From a virus: a stretch of 64,000 bases of DNA. The translations under genes were made by a program, and so were the position numbers. The stretch lies in IMG/VR virus record IMGVR_UViG_3300017971_002536, positions 1 to 64,000 of that record. The stretch is one strand, 5' to 3'. This document shows, in pieces, positions 1-56,316 of the stretch. The notes beneath the pieces are model-generated. The model saw only the letters and a list, made by a program, of their open reading frames with translations, was not told the DNA's origin and did not search any database. The stretch's first letter is position 1, and the number at the start of each line of letters is the position of its first letter.

Positions 1-1461
1 ATCATCGCCGTAATGGCGACCTACTATATCCCAGGTTTGACTCATAAGTTTTTTTCGTGTTTCGCCACGATCAGGAAATCCACTAAAAATCCATGCGTAA
101 AAATACTTGATAAAAAATGGAGTTGGATCGTCCTTTAACTGCCAGTTACTTCCTAATACATTCCACCTGTACATATGATTTACACCATACTTGAGCGGTA
201 AAAACTTTATTTCTTCATCATGTCCTTGTACAAAATAATTCAATACCGGTTGATCCGTTCCCCGCTTTACTACATTTGTTTGATAATCTACAAATACATC
301 ATGTTGAGCATAATAACGTTCTTTCATATGAAAAAGAATACCACTATGATTCTTATTGAGAATAACAAAACCACTATTGAAATACTTTTTCACATCAAAA
401 TCTACATCGTCAAATAATGGATGATAACCACGAGCACTTTCATATGTCCACTTCCAATTCTCCACAGATTTAAGAGCACAAAACTTGTGATCACTCATTT
501 CAAATATGTTCGGCATATCCCATTTAACCATAATCGACGCATCCGTTGAAAGTATTTGATCATACTTATCTTCGTCCAAAATATCTAAGATTTTCCACCA
601 ACGTTGCCAGTTTGGGCGGTGAGCCACTAAATCATCTTCAATCGGTTCTTCAAATGCGTAAAACTCAACTCCATTCTTTTCACACCAATATTCCCACGTC
701 CTCTTTGAGTAATCCATCCACGAATAATCACTGTGTCGCCCAACAAGAAATTTATCTTTACTCCGTAACCCAGTCCAAAATACTAAATTCTTTTTATTAT
801 CATCTTTTTTTAATTCTATTTTATCCATAATTGTATTCCATTTTTCAGATCCAACAAACAATTTTATATTCTTTTTTCGTAATTTATTTATTATTTTTGT
901 GTTTTTATCATCAAAATTCTTATCAATTCGGTGACCATGCAATTCCAAGTAAAGAACGTCAACATAATCAATAGAACCATCTTCAAACATCTTATCTAAT
1001 ACAAAATATTCGGCTCCCTCTATATCCATTTTAAGAACTATATAATCACCTTTATTAAATGTATTTATTATCCATTTACTAAAATCTATTCCATCTACTT
1101 CAAGTTTTTCTAATTTCCATTTTTTATTTAATGGAATTTCTCCGCGTTGAATCGCACCATCAAATTGTTTTTTCACACTATCCAATTTTTCTTTTATTAA
1201 TGAACTTCCAAAATGATCATGTGTATTACCATTTTTATCTTTTATATTACATCTCGGATCAAAATAAAATGCGTGTTTTTTGTCAGTAATTGACACTGCC
1301 ATTTCATAAAAAAATACATTCTTATTCTCAAGTTTCTTTTTAAATTCAGGATTTGGTTCAAAACTATATATTTCATATTTATCCGCGTCAGGATAATGTT
1401 TTCGAAATAAATCAATCGAACAACCATCATTAGCTCCAGCGTCAATAAAAACTTTTTTCAT
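1..1461 (-). CDS. FkbM-family methyltransferase fused to a GT-A (GT8/GT34-like) glycosyltransferase; 3' end runs off the window
   Basis: Not in the ORF track; translated by hand. ATG at 1461 overlaps the upstream TGA. MKKVFIDAGANDG..SFEPNP..LKMDIEGAE (FkbM) continues in frame into STDASIMV..YFNSGFV..GTDQPVLN (GT-A) with no stop down to position 1. Confidence 0.8.
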   Translation of the reverse strand, partial: MKKVFIDAGANDGCSIDLFRKHYPDADKYEIYSFEPNPEFKKKLENKNVFFYEMAVSITDKKHAFYFDPRCNIKDKNGNTHDHFGSSLIKEKLDSVKKQFDGAIQRGEIPLNKKWKLEKLEVDGIDFSKWIINTFNKGDYIVLKMDIEGAEYFVLDKMFEDGSIDYVDVLYLELHGHRIDKNFDDKNTKIINKLRKKNIKLFVGSEKWNTIMDKIELKKDDNKKNLVFWTGLRSKDKFLVGRHSDYSWMDYSKRTWEYWCEKNGVEFYAFEEPIEDDLVAHRPNWQRWWKILDILDEDKYDQILSTDASIMVKWDMPNIFEMSDHKFCALKSVENWKWTYESARGYHPLFDDVDFDVKKYFNSGFVILNKNHSGILFHMKERYYAQHDVFVDYQTNVVKRGTDQPVLNYFVQGHDEEIKFLPLKYGVNHMYRWNVLGSNWQLKDDPTPFFIKYFYAWIFSGFPDRGETRKKLMSQTWDIVGRHYGDD

Positions 1462-45060: not shown

Positions 45061-45639
45061 TTATTTAAATAATTTTTCCCAATCTTTTTTTAACTCTAAC
45101 TTATATTTATCTAATAACTTAGATGAAATACTATTAATGCAATATCCCTTTCTTTGTGGATTTTCTAATTCATCAACAGGAATTAAAGAAAAATTCCAAT
45201 TATTTATATTTTTACGAACTTCTTTTTTATCTCGTCCTTTATAGTGAATTAACGTAACCAAAACCGCATCAAATTCATCAATACTATATGGAGTATAACC
45301 ATTAAGTGAATTATTTACATTTTTATCAGAATTTCTCCTTGTATTTTCAAAACAAATTTGTCTTGAGTACGGAGTTTTACCATCAACTTGTCTCAACTTA
45401 CTTTGGATTTTTTTATATTTGAGATTTGTATATATATCAAAACCTGCACCATTACCATCATCATTTATAACATCACTTACAACATTATTTCCTAAATAAT
45501 ATTTTATCAAATCACATTGAATATACTCATTTGCTTCTGCAACAGTTTTTCCCCATTCTCTAAGACATTTTCTCAATACAAATCCATTTTCAATAAAATC
45601 TCTAACATCCTTATCAGTTATAATACTATTATCTAACAA
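45061..45639 (-). CDS. Putative PD-(D/E)XK-type (D..QxK) endonuclease
   Basis: GFDI..KIQSK.R, YSIDEFD; start reassigned to TTG 45639, just after GGAGAG, because the track start lies inside a terminator. Confidence 0.5.
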   Translation of the reverse strand: MLDNSIITDKDVRDFIENGFVLRKCLREWGKTVAEANEYIQCDLIKYYLGNNVVSDVINDDGNGAGFDIYTNLKYKKIQSKLRQVDGKTPYSRQICFENTRRNSDKNVNNSLNGYTPYSIDEFDAVLVTLIHYKGRDKKEVRKNINNWNFSLIPVDELENPQRKGYCINSISSKLLDKYKLELKKDWEKLFK

Positions 45640-45660
45640 ATTTCTCTCCAATCTTTTAAT

Positions 45661-45692
45661 AAAAAACCCATTCAATATTGAATGGGCTTTTT
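45661..45692 (-). terminator. Rho-independent terminator (probably bidirectional)
   Basis: Perfect palindrome cccattcaatattgaatggg (45667-45686) flanked by A6 and T5. Confidence 0.8.
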
Positions 45693-49599: not shown

Positions 49600-50499
49600 T
49601 TATTTTTCTTTATTTTTCGCTAAATATTTCGGCGAATATCTAAGATAACATTGTGTCGCAGGCAAATCTACACTATAACCCTCACTATCTACTTTTATAA
49701 GTGCTGGTGTTTCTCTCGATGGATTTTTTGTCAATAAATCATTTATACGAGTAGAAATATGTGTCCATGGCTCAGCATCTGGTTCATATTCCATATGTTT
49801 TCTGTTGACTTCACTCAATAAATCTTTGTAGTGAATTTGTCCATATTCTTCAATGGTTTCTTTGATAAGAGAAACTTGAGAATACTCAGATTTATATGTA
49901 CTCGATCTTAATTCAGTTAAATCATTACTCTCAAACCAATTAAAAATACTAGCATTATTATCTAAATGTTTCATGAAAATTTCATGTAATTCTGGAAATG
50001 TAAAATAAAATGTAGAATATTCTTTTGCAACCACTAAGGCTTTTTCTTTTATAAAAAGTGTTCCGAGTTCTCCAAAATCCAAACGCTCTTTATAAACTTC
50101 TTTATCAAGAATACTTTTATATATAACAAGTTGTTCTTTATATAGATCACTACCTATTTTTACTTCTATATAAAAAATTCCATTACCATATTTTTTTGAC
50201 TTTATACGTAAAACAATATCAAGACGCCTATCATGTATTTCCTCTCCATCAGACGCATAAATAACTTCTTTTTTAGGTTCTTCTCTACTTACACTATATT
50301 CTATTTCATCATCCGAAAAATCATATTTTTTAGTCTTTTCACCTATTAGTGTAATTATTTCATCAGCAACCTTTGGATTATTATTAATATACAAACAAAC
50401 TCCACCAGTCACTTTAACCTCTTGACCACCACCAACTATATCTATCCAATATTTTTCTTGATCTTCCATCAGTGGATTTCTATTACAACGAATTTTCAT
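49600..50499 (-). CDS. PD-(D/E)XK nuclease (PDDEXK_4-like) with C-terminal possible winged helix
   Basis: RRLDIVL..FYIEVKI..EQL..Y; own early promoter. Confidence 0.7.
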   Translation of the reverse strand: MKIRCNRNPLMEDQEKYWIDIVGGGQEVKVTGGVCLYINNNPKVADEIITLIGEKTKKYDFSDDEIEYSVSREEPKKEVIYASDGEEIHDRRLDIVLRIKSKKYGNGIFYIEVKIGSDLYKEQLVIYKSILDKEVYKERLDFGELGTLFIKEKALVVAKEYSTFYFTFPELHEIFMKHLDNNASIFNWFESNDLTELRSSTYKSEYSQVSLIKETIEEYGQIHYKDLLSEVNRKHMEYEPDAEPWTHISTRINDLLTKNPSRETPALIKVDSEGYSVDLPATQCYLRYSPKYLAKNKEK

Positions 50500-50570: not shown

Positions 50571-51266
50571 TTATTTTGACTTTAGAATAACTATAACTCG
50601 TCCAGTAGAACTTTCAATTATAACTACTTCATGAGTTTTCTCAAATTTTTTCTTCCAATCAATTAATACTTCAGTATGTCCAGGATCTGCTGCAAATGTT
50701 TCGTGTTTTGGAGTTGGATATGTGAACACACAATTTTTACATACTCTCATAATTTCATTAGCTGCTTGATCTTTTAGAGCCGGTGGAATGTGTTCGATTG
50801 TTTCAGTACACCAGCCCCAATCCCATTGATGATCTTCAAAATCTTTCATATCAGTTACATCCATAACATAATCAATTTTTGGACCTGGACGTAAATCTAA
50901 TGATTTATATATTTTTGTTCGTTTTCGTAAATTTCCTTTATACGGTACACTTAATCCAGCTCCAATATCAAGTATAGATTTAGCTTTTGTTTCTTCCGTC
51001 AAATGTATAGTTCTTATATAATCACGATTAAATTTATAATTACCATCTTCGCCAAAATATACAGGTGGAACATACCACAAATAATGACGTATCACTTCCT
51101 CGCCATTACGGTGATGATCAACTGCAGTTTCAGGAAAAATATATTCAAATGTTTCTTCCTCTTTTTTCGGCACGTACTTTAAACGTTGTCTTTTTGGTTC
51201 ATCAGCTACGTCTTCCGCAGCTTGACTATCAAAAAAATCATTCTTTTTCATTTTCAATCTGCCCAT
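50571..51266 (-). CDS. Class I SAM methyltransferase (Methyltransf_11-like)
   Basis: ILDIGAG, SLDL, CTETIEHI, FTYP; N-terminal KKNDFFDS. Confidence 0.85.
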   Translation of the reverse strand: MGRLKMKKNDFFDSQAAEDVADEPKRQRLKYVPKKEEETFEYIFPETAVDHHRNGEEVIRHYLWYVPPVYFGEDGNYKFNRDYIRTIHLTEETKAKSILDIGAGLSVPYKGNLRKRTKIYKSLDLRPGPKIDYVMDVTDMKDFEDHQWDWGWCTETIEHIPPALKDQAANEIMRVCKNCVFTYPTPKHETFAADPGHTEVLIDWKKKFEKTHEVVIIESSTGRVIVILKSK

Positions 51267-53025: not shown

Positions 53026-54069
53026 CTACTCCTTTGAAGTTTTAGCAAATGTATTTAGTTTATTAAAATTCAGGTTCAACCATGAATCAATGTTTGGGAT
53101 GGCACTATAAAGTTTATCTTCCAAGAACAATCTTTTAAGTTGATACCTATTGATTGTACTAACAGGTTCGTCTAAAAGTTCCCTGATTTTAACTTTTGTT
53201 GTACCACTAATTTCTACTTCGCCTAACTTCATTAACTTAAAATTCATCTTTAGTTGTTCTTCGTTTTCCATGATTAATCGGGCGGCTGTGTTCTTTCCGG
53301 GTTGACGATTCGCATACTCCAAAATACTCTCCAATGAAACCTTTTCTTCGTCTAATAATATAGGTAAATGTTTTTGTGCTGTCTTTAATCCTATTCCCTT
53401 TATTCCTGGTATATTATCACTTGAGTCGCCATCTAAAATACGAAAATATATGAGATTCTTTGGCGAAAAATGATAATCTTCCTTGACTGCCTTTTCGTCG
53501 TATAACTTCTTTTTTGTTGGATTCCATACCTTTATCCTATCATCGACAAGTTGTAAAAAATCCTTGTCCGTTGACATTATTACTACTTCCTCTTTCAATA
53601 ACTCCTTTGATACATACGAAATAACATCGTCAGCTTCTATGTTATCATAAATAAACATTTGTAAAGGTAAGTTGTCTAAATAATCTGCTGACCTACTTAT
53701 TTGTCTACTCGCTTCGTCAACTTCCTCATCGGGTGTGTGAAAATCGTATGTACGATTTAACCTTACTCGTAAACCTGTTCTATGTGCTTTGTAGTCGGGA
53801 TAAATTTTTCGACGGCGAGCTGATCCGCCTTTTCCATCAAATACCACGATACAACGTGTAGGATTTATCGTGCGGATACCAACTGCTATTGTGTTCAGGA
53901 AGCCGACAATACCACCTATATGTGTACCATCGTCATTCATTGCGGGATTTACCGAAAACGCTCTAATGAAATTATTTAAACCATCGATTAATAAAACTTT
54001 TGAGTTGAGTGATTTGGCGTTTTCGTTTTCTTGTTTAATTTCTTCTAATAGATTATCGATATTAACCAT
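53026..54069 (-). CDS. rnh: 5'-3' exonuclease / T4 RNase H (FEN-like)
   Basis: LIDGLN, VVFDG, YKAHR, EADD, STDKDFLQL, GDSSDNIPGIKGIG.KTA. Confidence 0.93.
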   Translation of the reverse strand: MVNIDNLLEEIKQENENAKSLNSKVLLIDGLNNFIRAFSVNPAMNDDGTHIGGIVGFLNTIAVGIRTINPTRCIVVFDGKGGSARRRKIYPDYKAHRTGLRVRLNRTYDFHTPDEEVDEASRQISRSADYLDNLPLQMFIYDNIEADDVISYVSKELLKEEVVIMSTDKDFLQLVDDRIKVWNPTKKKLYDEKAVKEDYHFSPKNLIYFRILDGDSSDNIPGIKGIGLKTAQKHLPILLDEEKVSLESILEYANRQPGKNTAARLIMENEEQLKMNFKLMKLGEVEISGTTKVKIRELLDEPVSTINRYQLKRLFLEDKLYSAIPNIDSWLNLNFNKLNTFAKTSKE

Positions 54070-54085
54070 TTTATTATGTCCTTTA

Positions 54086-54685
54086 TTAGAGTAAAAGTTT
54101 TTTCAAATTTTTATTAAAATGATTGATCAACTTTAAAGAATTTGTCGTATCTCTCCACATAAAATAATGTTCTTCACATCCAGCATACCATTGTGTTATT
54201 TCTTTTACTCTACATGGATCACGGGTAATATTACCAATAAAAACTGTCCAAAATGGTAAAACATCATTTCCAAGATTACCCTCACTTTTTAATATTTTTA
54301 ATAATCCAGGTGTAAAATATTTACATGATCTTTCGTGAGCATTTCCACGACCATCTTGGCGTTTTCCGCCCTCAACCCAACCATCTTGTCGTTTTACTTC
54401 CACATAAATTGTTTTTTGAGTTTGAGTATTATCAATAGCGTAATCTGGCACGATTCCATGTGTCTCAATCTTTTCTTCTGGAATATAAATTTCTTCTAAT
54501 ACCTTTTTATCAAGTTCTACATCAACATAAATATTCGTGAATTCTTGCGGACTTTCTCGTATCACAAATTTTGTGTTTTTAAATTCTTGTAAAAAAACAT
54601 TATAAAAATCGTGTTCAGCTATTTTTGCTTTTTTTCCACTATTTTTTTGCCAAGTAGATCTGTTTTTTAATTCTTTTGAGCCCAC
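54086..54685 (-). CDS. munIR: MunI-family type II restriction endonuclease (predicted C^AATTG); no adjacent DNA methyltransferase
   Basis: PDYAI..YVEVKRQDGWVEG..GRGNAHERSCK.FTPGLL..LPFW.VF.G.ITRDP.R..EIT.WY..YFMWR matches R.MunI as I recall it along the full length; GTG start. Confidence 0.9.
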   Translation of the reverse strand: MGSKELKNRSTWQKNSGKKAKIAEHDFYNVFLQEFKNTKFVIRESPQEFTNIYVDVELDKKVLEEIYIPEEKIETHGIVPDYAIDNTQTQKTIYVEVKRQDGWVEGGKRQDGRGNAHERSCKYFTPGLLKILKSEGNLGNDVLPFWTVFIGNITRDPCRVKEITQWYAGCEEHYFMWRDTTNSLKLINHFNKNLKKLLL

Positions 54686-54695
54686 AAAAACCTTT

Positions 54696-55100
54696 CTAAG
54701 TTGTTTTGTATTTACTCACTATCTTTTGTAAGAAACGAGTTCTGTCGGATAATCTTTTCCAATCATATTCCCAAATAACTTCAATATTGTAACCATTTTC
54801 TTCAGCAGATTTGATTTTCTCTTTATCCTTTTCCCATTTTTCCCAAGCATACCTTTTCTTTACCTTGTCATAAAAATCAGGTGGATAAATGTTTTTGTTG
54901 TAGTGCCACCGATCTCCATTATACTCAATGATTAAATTTAATTCCTTTATGAATATATCATATGGAACGCCATCAAGCATAAATTCATTACGAACCTTAC
55001 AGCCGAGTTTTCGAAGTGTCTTAAACACTTCACTGTGACCCTGACTCATTGTCGTTGACCGTCGAACTTTTCTCTTTTTACCACGTTTCTTCTTTTTCAA
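54696..55100 (-). CDS. Vsr/DUF559-like endonuclease (free-standing homing endonuclease-like)
   Basis: YDIFI..IIEYNGDRWH..DKEK..GYNIEVIWE; basic N-terminus; TTG start. Confidence 0.8.
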   Translation of the reverse strand: MKKKKRGKKRKVRRSTTMSQGHSEVFKTLRKLGCKVRNEFMLDGVPYDIFIKELNLIIEYNGDRWHYNKNIYPPDFYDKVKKRYAWEKWEKDKEKIKSAEENGYNIEVIWEYDWKRLSDRTRFLQKIVSKYKTT

Positions 55101-55102
55101 TA

Positions 55103-55161
55103 TGAATAATCCCGATATGAGTTCTACTATATATAAATAGTGTTCAAATCGGGATTATTCA
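55103..55161 (-). promoter_or_regulatory. RBS-sequestering hairpin with the TATTTATA motif in its loop
   Basis: 14-bp perfect inverted repeat tgaataatcccgat/atcgggattattca; motif at 55132-55139. Confidence 0.7.
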
Positions 55162-55173
55162 CGTTTCTGTTAA

Positions 55174-56316
55174 TTAATCGTCACCAATTATTTCATCAGT
55201 GACTATCATTTCATCCGTACTTAACCCTATGTCCGACTTATCTTTATACTTCATTATTTGAAAATCACAAATCTTGTTGTATAAAAATTCTTTGAATTCG
55301 GGCTCACTTTCAAGTAATTCGCCCCAATTCTTCGTCTCAAATCGTCTTTCCTCTCCCTTGTGATCAACTATTTTAAATCCAGGGTTGGAACGGGAAACTA
55401 AATCATTGTCTTTTAAAATCTCTAACCAATTTTCATAGTCATATATACCCCTGTCAAAATAAATGTCAAAGTCGGCGATCCGGTAGGACGGCCCCATTCG
55501 ATTCTTGATTACTTGAGCTCTCGCTTTGATGCCAATTACTTGTTCTTGTGTTCCTATCTTTTGTTTGATTTGACCCATCGCTTTTAACCGGACACGGATA
55601 GAAGCATGAAACGGCAAACCCTTTCCACCTGAAGTAGTCCAGGGATCACCAAACATTACGCCCATCTTCTGGCGTAACTGATTCGTAAAAATACACACAA
55701 CTCTCTCTTTACCTATCAATCGTGTAATCTTACGAAATGCTGCGGAAACAATTATCGCTTTAGTAGTATTCCAACCCTGCTTCTCATAATCGTTCTCCAT
55801 TTCTAATGAAGTTGAAGCAGCTGCTAATGAATCAACTACAATCACTACAAGTTTGTCCTTGTCGGATTCCCTAATAGTTGTAATTATTTGTTCAATAGTT
55901 TGAAATATTTGTTCCACAGTATCAAGTTGGACATATAACATCTTTTCAACATCTACACCAATCGCTTCTAAAAAATCTTTACTTAAAGCATTTTCAGTGT
56001 CAATATAAACACCTACTCCACCTTTCGCCTGAGCACTCGCTATTGAGTGAGCAGCAAGTAATGACTTTCCACTCGATTCTAAACCATTAAATTCTATTAT
56101 ACGTCCTGTGGGAAGTCCACCATGCGGGCGGTTAGATATTGCTAAATCTAACATCGAACTTCCGGTTGAAATCCAATCAATCACATCAGTTGGTGTATCA
56201 TCACCAATAAAATGGGCTACCTTTCCATCACTTTTGAATTGTTTGTTCAACACATCCGCTAATGAGTGTACAAGATCGCCCTTTAATTCTTCCTTTTCAG
56301 CTTTCTTTTTCGCCAT
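55174..56316 (-). CDS. uvsX: RecA/UvsX recombinase
   Basis: ISTGS..LD, GLESSGKS, YIDTE, VVDS, FTNQLR, TSGGK. Confidence 0.93.
   Translation of the reverse strand: MAKKKAEKEELKGDLVHSLADVLNKQFKSDGKVAHFIGDDTPTDVIDWISTGSSMLDLAISNRPHGGLPTGRIIEFNGLESSGKSLLAAHSIASAQAKGGVGVYIDTENALSKDFLEAIGVDVEKMLYVQLDTVEQIFQTIEQIITTIRESDKDKLVVIVVDSLAAASTSLEMENDYEKQGWNTTKAIIVSAAFRKITRLIGKERVVCIFTNQLRQKMGVMFGDPWTTSGGKGLPFHASIRVRLKAMGQIKQKIGTQEQVIGIKARAQVIKNRMGPSYRIADFDIYFDRGIYDYENWLEILKDNDLVSRSNPGFKIVDHKGEERRFETKNWGELLESEPEFKEFLYNKICDFQIMKYKDKSDIGLSTDEMIVTDEIIGDD

Follow-up and report, generated by a model that had tools for sequence, protein, structure and literature searches.

The textbook view of restriction enzymes is of a bacterial defence that kills its carrier unless a methylase accompanies it. 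The locus considered here lies in a window of 64,000 nucleotides of viral DNA, the first 64 kb of a 168,383-bp IMG/VR contig (G000), and raises the question of how a virus can keep a gene for a MunI-type restriction enzyme with no DNA methyltransferase beside it, and what such an enzyme would act on. A preliminary description, made from the letters of the window, had proposed that the recognition site CAATTG was purged from the genome and that the enzyme is a domesticated weapon that cuts host or competitor DNA, the virus protecting itself by avoidance of the site. We examined the gene and its protein, the genome that carries it, the genes around it and the content of recognition sites, and weighed the explanations that these leave.

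A MunI-family nuclease with its catalytic and recognition residues in place

The gene in question is the following.

54086..54685, minus strand: solitary R.MunI-family Type IIP restriction endonuclease gene (assigned from PF11407, PDB 1D02 and conserved columns)

It encodes a protein of 199 aa from a GTG start codon, with a GAAAGG ribosome-binding site 5 nt upstream. The Pfam RestrictionMunI profile (PF11407), which covers MunI/EcoRI-like Type IIP enzymes, matches the protein with E=2.1e-71; the score is 240 bits where the curated cut-off is 25, and the match pairs residues 7-192 with profile positions 6-191 of 193 (186/193). Sequence alignment to MunI itself (PDB 1D02, a crystal chain that carries D83A) runs end to end, from residue 1 to 198, with E=7e-62, and the identity to the characterised enzyme, read off this alignment, is about 55%. 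The catalytic PD..EXK centre is intact, with D81, E96 and K98 (PD..EVK) aligning with MunI D83, E98 and K100, and the recognition segment GRGNAHERSCK is identical to that of 1D02, GRGNAHER occupying residues 112-119. Residues R113-R119 (RGNAHER), which correspond to the segment that reads CAATTG in MunI, all fall in conserved columns of the family alignment. The preliminary description had reported a full-length MunI homolog with PD..EVK and GNAHER motifs, and profile, structure-family alignment and motifs all bear this out.

When the phage protein is aligned with about 127-128 homologs, 71 columns show conservation of 95% or more; it retains 70 of these, the sole deviation being the conservative replacement R161K. 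We predict that the protein is active and that its specificity is that of MunI, C^AATTG, because the catalytic residues and the GRGNAHER segment are the same as in MunI. The MunI-family tree does not resolve the donor lineage: the phage protein forms a lone branch nested in no bacterial clade, with a length of 0.52 against a median of 0.23. A long private branch on which all key residues are kept would fit a long stay under purifying selection more readily than a newly arrived passenger in decay.

A closed genome of about 330 kb

An exact 30-mer from an ENA extension of the contig led to a second IMG/VR record, UViG_3300017971_000200 (G001; 161,620 bp, 34.6% GC). The right end of G000 (168369-168383) abuts G001 with a 15-nt overlap through which a 309-kb ENA contig reads, and the other end of G001 overlaps window positions 1-12 (12 nt), a join spanned by a single ORF. 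Since both contig ends overlap and the joins are crossed by the 309-kb ENA contig and by one ORF, the two contigs form a circular map of about 330 kb. The CheckV completeness of 78% for G000 was set aside, as the contigs close; the values of 78% and 70% each refer to one half of a single jumbo phage. The assemblies of the phage all agree in DNA sequence. In four independent ones (ENA, JGI, Logan) the breaks fall at exactly the same two positions, with 100% identity elsewhere, and the shared break positions suggest strain-level variation or a repeat at the junctions.

The genes identify a T4-like myovirus, with a Gp23 capsid protein, Gp20 portal, T4-type terminase, sheath, gp25, clamp loader and PolB. 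Two proteins encoded in G001 (L084-L089) carry T9SS C-terminal sorting domains, and the contig also codes for a TonB-dependent receptor (Plug and barrel); these genes hint that the host is probably a member of the Bacteroidota.

A variable slot in a conserved replication cluster

The nuclease gene belongs to a minus-strand run that comprises a gp32-like SSB, RecA/UvsX, a Vsr-like ORF, the MunI homolog, FEN and a DnaB-type helicase. The features on either side are as follows.

53026..54069, minus strand: 5'-3' exonuclease/FEN of the T4 RNase H type (PF02739, 1.7e-35; PF01367, 4e-12)
54070..55173, minus strand: insertion of ~1.1 kb holding the hairpin, the Vsr-like gene and the MunI gene (RecA is directly next to FEN in most relatives)
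54696..55100, minus strand: small Vsr/DUF559/MTES_1575-like nuclease ORF (Pfam MTES_1575, 4.8e-6, 27 bits, below the curated cut-off)
55102..55162, minus strand: strong RNA hairpin that separates the recA stop from the Vsr-like ORF (-27 kcal/mol; z = -6.4 relative to shuffled sequences)
55174..56316, minus strand: RecA/UvsX-type recombinase (PF00154, 1.1e-60)

The placement of the MunI gene between an RNase H and a Vsr-like nuclease, as first described, is correct, with FEN downstream and a weakly matching Vsr/DUF559/MTES_1575-like ORF upstream. The spacers are short: FEN starts 16 nt downstream of the MunI gene and the Vsr-like ORF ends 10 nt upstream of it. The latter ORF is 134 aa long from a TTG codon, or 117 aa from the ATG at 55049 that the ENA call uses. 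A terminator scan of the interval between RecA and FEN returned no intrinsic-terminator-like site. The hairpin at 55102-55162, 61 nt with an AT-rich loop containing TATTTATATATA, has no T run after the stem and was ruled out as a standard terminator.

The order gp32-RecA-FEN-DnaB is kept in 43 syntenic IMG/VR loci from relatives with 45-55% amino-acid identity. In most of these loci the gap between RecA and FEN amounts to tens of bases, and a MunI homolog is present in none (0/43). Because RecA adjoins FEN in most relatives and none has a MunI homolog there, 54070-55173 is an insertion into a conserved slot. The same slot in a distant 279-kb relative (L021; 9612-9941) holds a homolog of the Vsr-like gene with 38% identity, and a paralog with 29% identity occurs in the phage itself (G001, 80027-80326); another DUF559 ORF lies near 166.9-167.7 kb of G000. 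The Vsr-like gene is probably a free-standing homing-type endonuclease gene: it is a nuclease gene between conserved genes, present or absent among relatives, a pattern that characterizes homing cassettes and that here applies to the Vsr-like gene and not to any mobility of the MunI gene.

CAATTG and other recognition sites

The window contains no CAATTG, compared with a mean of 32.4 matches in shuffles (both strands scanned). A first manual scan had counted some 80 CAATT and 55 AATTG pentamers; these tallies were too low, the window having 102 and 66, although the statement that none of them forms CAATTG is right. The absence extends to the 168-kb contig (0 against 30-84 expected under Markov orders 1, 3 and 4) and to the closed 330 kb, in which 160, 88 and 68 sites are expected under orders 1, 3 and 4, respectively. 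Even at the lowest expectation (68), the Poisson probability of finding none is about 2e-30. Hexamers that differ from the site by one mismatch (CAATTA, CAATTC, AAATTG) occur at or above expectation across the 330 kb, so the loss is specific to the hexamer.

CAATTG is not the only word to be missing. ACATGT is equally absent from the 330 kb (0 against 58-122 expected), and several other palindromes are strongly depleted over the same 330 kb.

GATATC: 3 observed, 98-130 expected
GGATCC: 5 observed, 42-59 expected
GGTACC: 2 observed, 30-42 expected
CTTAAG: 2 observed, 24-78 expected
GACGTC: 2 observed, 21-40 expected
GTCGAC: 1 observed, 17-35 expected
CTAG: 18 observed, 465-605 expected

GAATTC, AAGCTT, TGATCA and AGATCT had been named as words that do occur, and all four are present, AGATCT being itself depleted (8 observed, 19-96 expected). 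Palindromes account for 9 of the 15 most depleted hexamers, as against 64 of all 2080 words, and asymmetric Type IIS-like words (CTCTTC, GAAGAC, CTCCTC, CATCTC, CTCATC and others) are down five- to ten-fold. This broad loss of palindromes looks like classic avoidance of host restriction sites, and the avoidance of so many palindromes argues that the DNA is probably not generally shielded by base modification. No cognate nuclease for ACATGT or the other depleted sites was found in the phage genome, and PDB sequence searches with the Vsr-like ORF and the ORFs at 45061-45675 and 49600-50499 gave no restriction-enzyme match for ACATGT or GATATC.

Relatives of the phage and bacterial carriers of MunI genes

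Relatives that lack the MunI gene retain the site: their 533 kb hold 324 CAATTG, or about one per 1.6 kb, against an expectation of 258, which leaves the idea of a purge tied to the gene standing. The same relatives also keep ACATGT (88 observed, 74 expected) and most CTAG; they are distant (45-55% amino-acid identity) and probably infect other hosts, so the comparison does not tell whether the purge was the work of the phage's own enzyme or of the hosts of this phage. The phage collections searched hold no close relative or near-identical phage record, and only one short fecal contig in the phage collection has a MunI homolog.

Among the named bacterial genomes matched by the MunI protein, 11 of 23 belong to Bacteroidota. 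Bacteroidota genomes with a full MunI system carry 480-842 CAATTG each, about one per 4-5 kb. MunI-family genes occur in only 2 of 400 other sampled Bacteroidota species genomes, and host pressure on CAATTG is for this reason not obviously common.

No methylase or controller gene detected

Bacterial MunI genes are accompanied by partners that the phage gene does not have. Our comparison comprised 28 other MunI loci (23 named bacterial genomes, four metagenome contexts of the closest homologs and one other IMG/VR locus). In all 28, an adjacent, convergent MT-A70 methylase gene follows the R gene, and in 24 a small HTH_3 controller (C) gene precedes it. Pfam searches of the neighbouring ORFs detected no methyltransferase adjoining the phage gene, in agreement with the preliminary description, and the gene upstream of it is the Vsr-like nuclease gene and not a C gene. 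No remnants of C or M genes were found anywhere in the 330 kb by tblastn with M and C proteins (E<=10).

A search for an m6A methyltransferase across the genome found none of the families tested: MT-A70 (PF05063), N6_N4_Mtase, MethyltransfD12, N6_Mtase and C5 DNA_methylase have no match with E<=1 in either contig, and Dam (PF05869) is absent from G000, the contig to which that profile search applied. Novel methyltransferase families may escape such profile searches. The only methyltransferases among the matches listed in Pfam sweeps of all 510 called ORFs are class-I enzymes of the sugar or small-molecule type in glycan clusters. The question of a cognate methylase is in part moot, there being no site in the genome for such a methylase to protect.

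Three candidate methylases were rejected. In G001, an ORF bearing an NPPY motif belongs to a tandem array of six Laminin_G_3 lectin-like paralogs, and an ORF with a DPPH motif in the window is an AAA+ subunit of the clamp loader. The tandem paralogs, of 223-254 aa, lie at 138.8-143.3 kb of G001 (L091, 5863-10252); four of the six match Laminin_G_3 or concanavalin-like lectin domains, and one carries the chance NPPY. A class-I methyltransferase-like ORF at 50571-51266 (minus strand) was rejected as a protector, as it has no DNA-methyltransferase motif IV and there is no CAATTG to protect. This ORF, 2.8 kb from the nuclease gene, has weak Methyltransf_11/25 matches and no homolog within 10 kb of the replication cluster in any of the 43 relatives.

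A restriction enzyme probably made safe by the absence of its site

The enzyme has no substrate in the phage's own DNA, and self-protection is by lack of sites, not by methylation: a genome without CAATTG needs no methylase, and in such a genome an active enzyme would act only on foreign DNA. The explanation that we favour, with moderate confidence, is that the phage keeps an active CAATTG-specific MunI-type endonuclease without C and M genes, that avoidance of the site came first and that host or rival DNA is the target. Lying in the gp32-RecA-FEN-helicase cluster with no terminator-like site between it and the flanking genes, the nuclease is probably made together with the replication proteins. 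Its targets would be unmethylated foreign DNA, that is, the host chromosome and co-infecting phages. An unmethylated host chromosome would be cut every few kilobases, given the 480-842 CAATTG per Bacteroidota genome; the resulting fragments with 5'-AATT ends could feed phage exonucleases and the nucleotide pool in a T4-like manner, and breakdown of the chromosome would silence host expression and provide nucleotides from which a 330-kb genome can be built. We infer that breakdown of the host chromosome and exclusion of co-infecting phages, which are not mutually exclusive, are the most likely roles, and the proposed function as a domesticated weapon would be a reasonable one.

As to the order of events, the CAATTG-free state most likely arose first, within the broad avoidance of host restriction sites, because a phage whose genome held tens of sites would have had little chance against an active, naked R gene. 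A site-free genome would have made the capture of such a gene survivable, and the enzyme would since then have made each new CAATTG lethal, which would hold the number of sites at exactly zero. A host population with MunI-type systems would account most simply for the pressure as well as for the origin of the gene. The enzyme itself is probably not the original cause of the missing sites, since many other sites were purged too, and the absence of a site does not by itself point to a self-encoded enzyme, since ACATGT is equally absent and about eight others are nearly absent with no cognate nuclease. What the preliminary description had put forward as cause and effect holds in part: the nuclease is solitary, the genome is free of the site and protection requires no methylation, but the enzyme as the cause of the purge is confounded by ACATGT and the other depleted words. 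Further considerations weigh against the favoured explanation. Were the gene an inert passenger, chance alone would place its site with the most strongly purged palindromes in about 3-14% of cases (2 to 9 of 64), and a host with a MunI-type restriction-modification system, if that was the source, would have methylated DNA and be excluded as a target.

A bolder account, which we hold only tentatively and regard as somewhat improbable, would make the nuclease the cause of the purge and an offensive weapon against host and rivals that tells self from non-self by sequence content; cutting in mixed infections followed by recombinational repair would then turn relatives that bear the site into carriers of site-free alleles and spread the gene, a restriction-based gene drive, and the absence of ACATGT would mark a second, unrecognised nuclease of this kind. 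At the other extreme, the gene may be a harmless passenger that came with or beside a mobile homing-type nuclease, without cost or benefit, the loss of CAATTG being wholly host-imposed. Other palindromes were indeed broadly purged without a cognate nuclease, the RecA|FEN slot holds a Vsr-like gene in another lineage too, and the genome has more free-standing nuclease genes (GIY-YIG/T5orf172, NUMOD1 and extra DUF559 copies). The homing-type neighbour in a variable slot would likewise suit a selfish passenger. Decay is to be expected of a neutral nuclease gene, however, and in the phage protein a long branch goes together with the retention of 70 of the 71 conserved positions and of all catalytic and recognition residues; C and M, moreover, were cleanly removed without remnant, and an active enzyme would cut site-bearing host or rival DNA anyway. 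We consider a passenger unlikely on these grounds.

The matched recognition segment, the intact catalytic residues and the identity of about 55% to a characterised enzyme also speak against a protein that is inactive or has changed its job, as does the exact absence of CAATTG with neighbouring words unaffected, which is what an active enzyme requires. It is quite improbable, in our judgement, that CAATTG is not cleaved (through weak expression, lost activity or a new specificity) or that the protein serves as a DNA-binding or structure-specific nuclease in recombination near RecA and FEN, even though the gene lies within a recombination and replication cluster, begins with GTG and has counterparts among sequence-intact solitary restriction enzymes without detectable activity, such as HindVP and BthVORF1149P (PMC3488263). 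A last possibility is hidden protection, by an unrecognised methyltransferase or by sugar hypermodification tied to the glycan clusters, with the nuclease as one half of a non-canonical modification-restriction pair. The nucleotide-sugar and glycosyltransferase clusters are very large, some of them beside the DNA polymerase gene, relatives gave no counterpart of the class-I methyltransferase-like ORF at 50571-51266, and a new methyltransferase family may go unnoticed in profile searches. A cognate modification would nevertheless have no CAATTG in the genome to protect, a genome that so strongly avoids many palindromes is presumably open to attack by Type II enzymes, the presence of ThyX and dUTPase is a sign of ordinary thymidine, and no hydroxymethylase, deazaguanine or PurZ-type family is among the Pfam matches listed, all of which makes such protection very improbable.

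Comparison with known systems

R.MunI (Mycoplasma sp., PDB 1D02, PF11407, C^AATTG) belongs to the same family as the phage protein and has the same length, catalytic residues and recognition segment. The canonical MunI system consists of C (HTH_3), R and M (MT-A70, convergent), whereas the phage has neither C nor M, and its gene sits in the replication cluster of a lytic phage. T4 endonucleases II and IV (denA and denB) break down host DNA, hydroxymethylcytosine protecting that of the phage. The likeness lies in a nuclease of a T4-like phage that is able to tell host from phage DNA and is probably made during the replication phase; T4 discriminates by a modified base, whereas the present phage would do so by a missing hexamer, and the enzyme families are unrelated.

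The recognition site of PacI is an 8-bp, AT-only word, and its absence from a bacterial chromosome is largely compositional. The phage, unlike the carrier of PacI, lacks a 6-bp site that is expected 68-160 times in an AT-rich genome, and this absence requires selection. In both cases the carrier genome has no recognition site, and the phage has no methylase of the families tested: PacI, from Pseudomonas alcaligenes, is cited by Ershova et al. 2012 (PMC3488263) as a solitary restriction enzyme that is safe as the host genome has no sites, and similar solitary enzymes are inactive in other cases (PMC3488263). Type II restriction encoded by viruses is known from chloroviruses, where it is directed against host DNA, and from marseilleviruses, where it is directed against co-infecting viruses (Jeudy et al. 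2020, PMC7253447); these viruses protect themselves by a cognate methylase, whereas in the phage none was found and protection relies on the missing site. A survey of 831 phages reported 12 solitary restriction endonucleases, 7 of them in virulent phages (Oliveira et al. 2014, PMC4176335); the phage enzyme is of the same category, for which the survey gives counts only, with no site content, specificity or mode of self-protection. Our literature search found no described phage-encoded, methylase-free Type II enzyme accompanied by loss of its site.

The locus presents a phage of virulent type that keeps a methylase-free restriction enzyme and is safe through the absence of its target. If the enzyme is active, discrimination of self from non-self would here operate by sequence content and be used for attack, and an unmodified phage would gain the option that T4 gets from hydroxymethylcytosine. 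The case is especially easy to test, as the specificity is predictable from a family with a crystal structure, the genome is closed and the count is exactly zero. It also carries a caution for genome analysis, in that the cause of a hexamer missing from a phage may lie in a nuclease of the phage's own no less than in enzymes of the host.

Other features of the genome

G001 encodes genes for NAD salvage (NAPRTase, NAD synthase, an NMN transporter and NADAR), together with Ro60/TROVE, Thg1, an RNA ligase, a PAS histidine kinase with response regulators, Hsp20, peptide deformylase, IMPDH and a Lar-like protein. The nucleotide-sugar and glycosyltransferase genes in window positions 1-32000 and at the far end of G001 (L090-L092) form one island of well over 30 kb that spans the junction, and the ORF that crosses this join fuses methyltransferase and glycosyltransferase domains.
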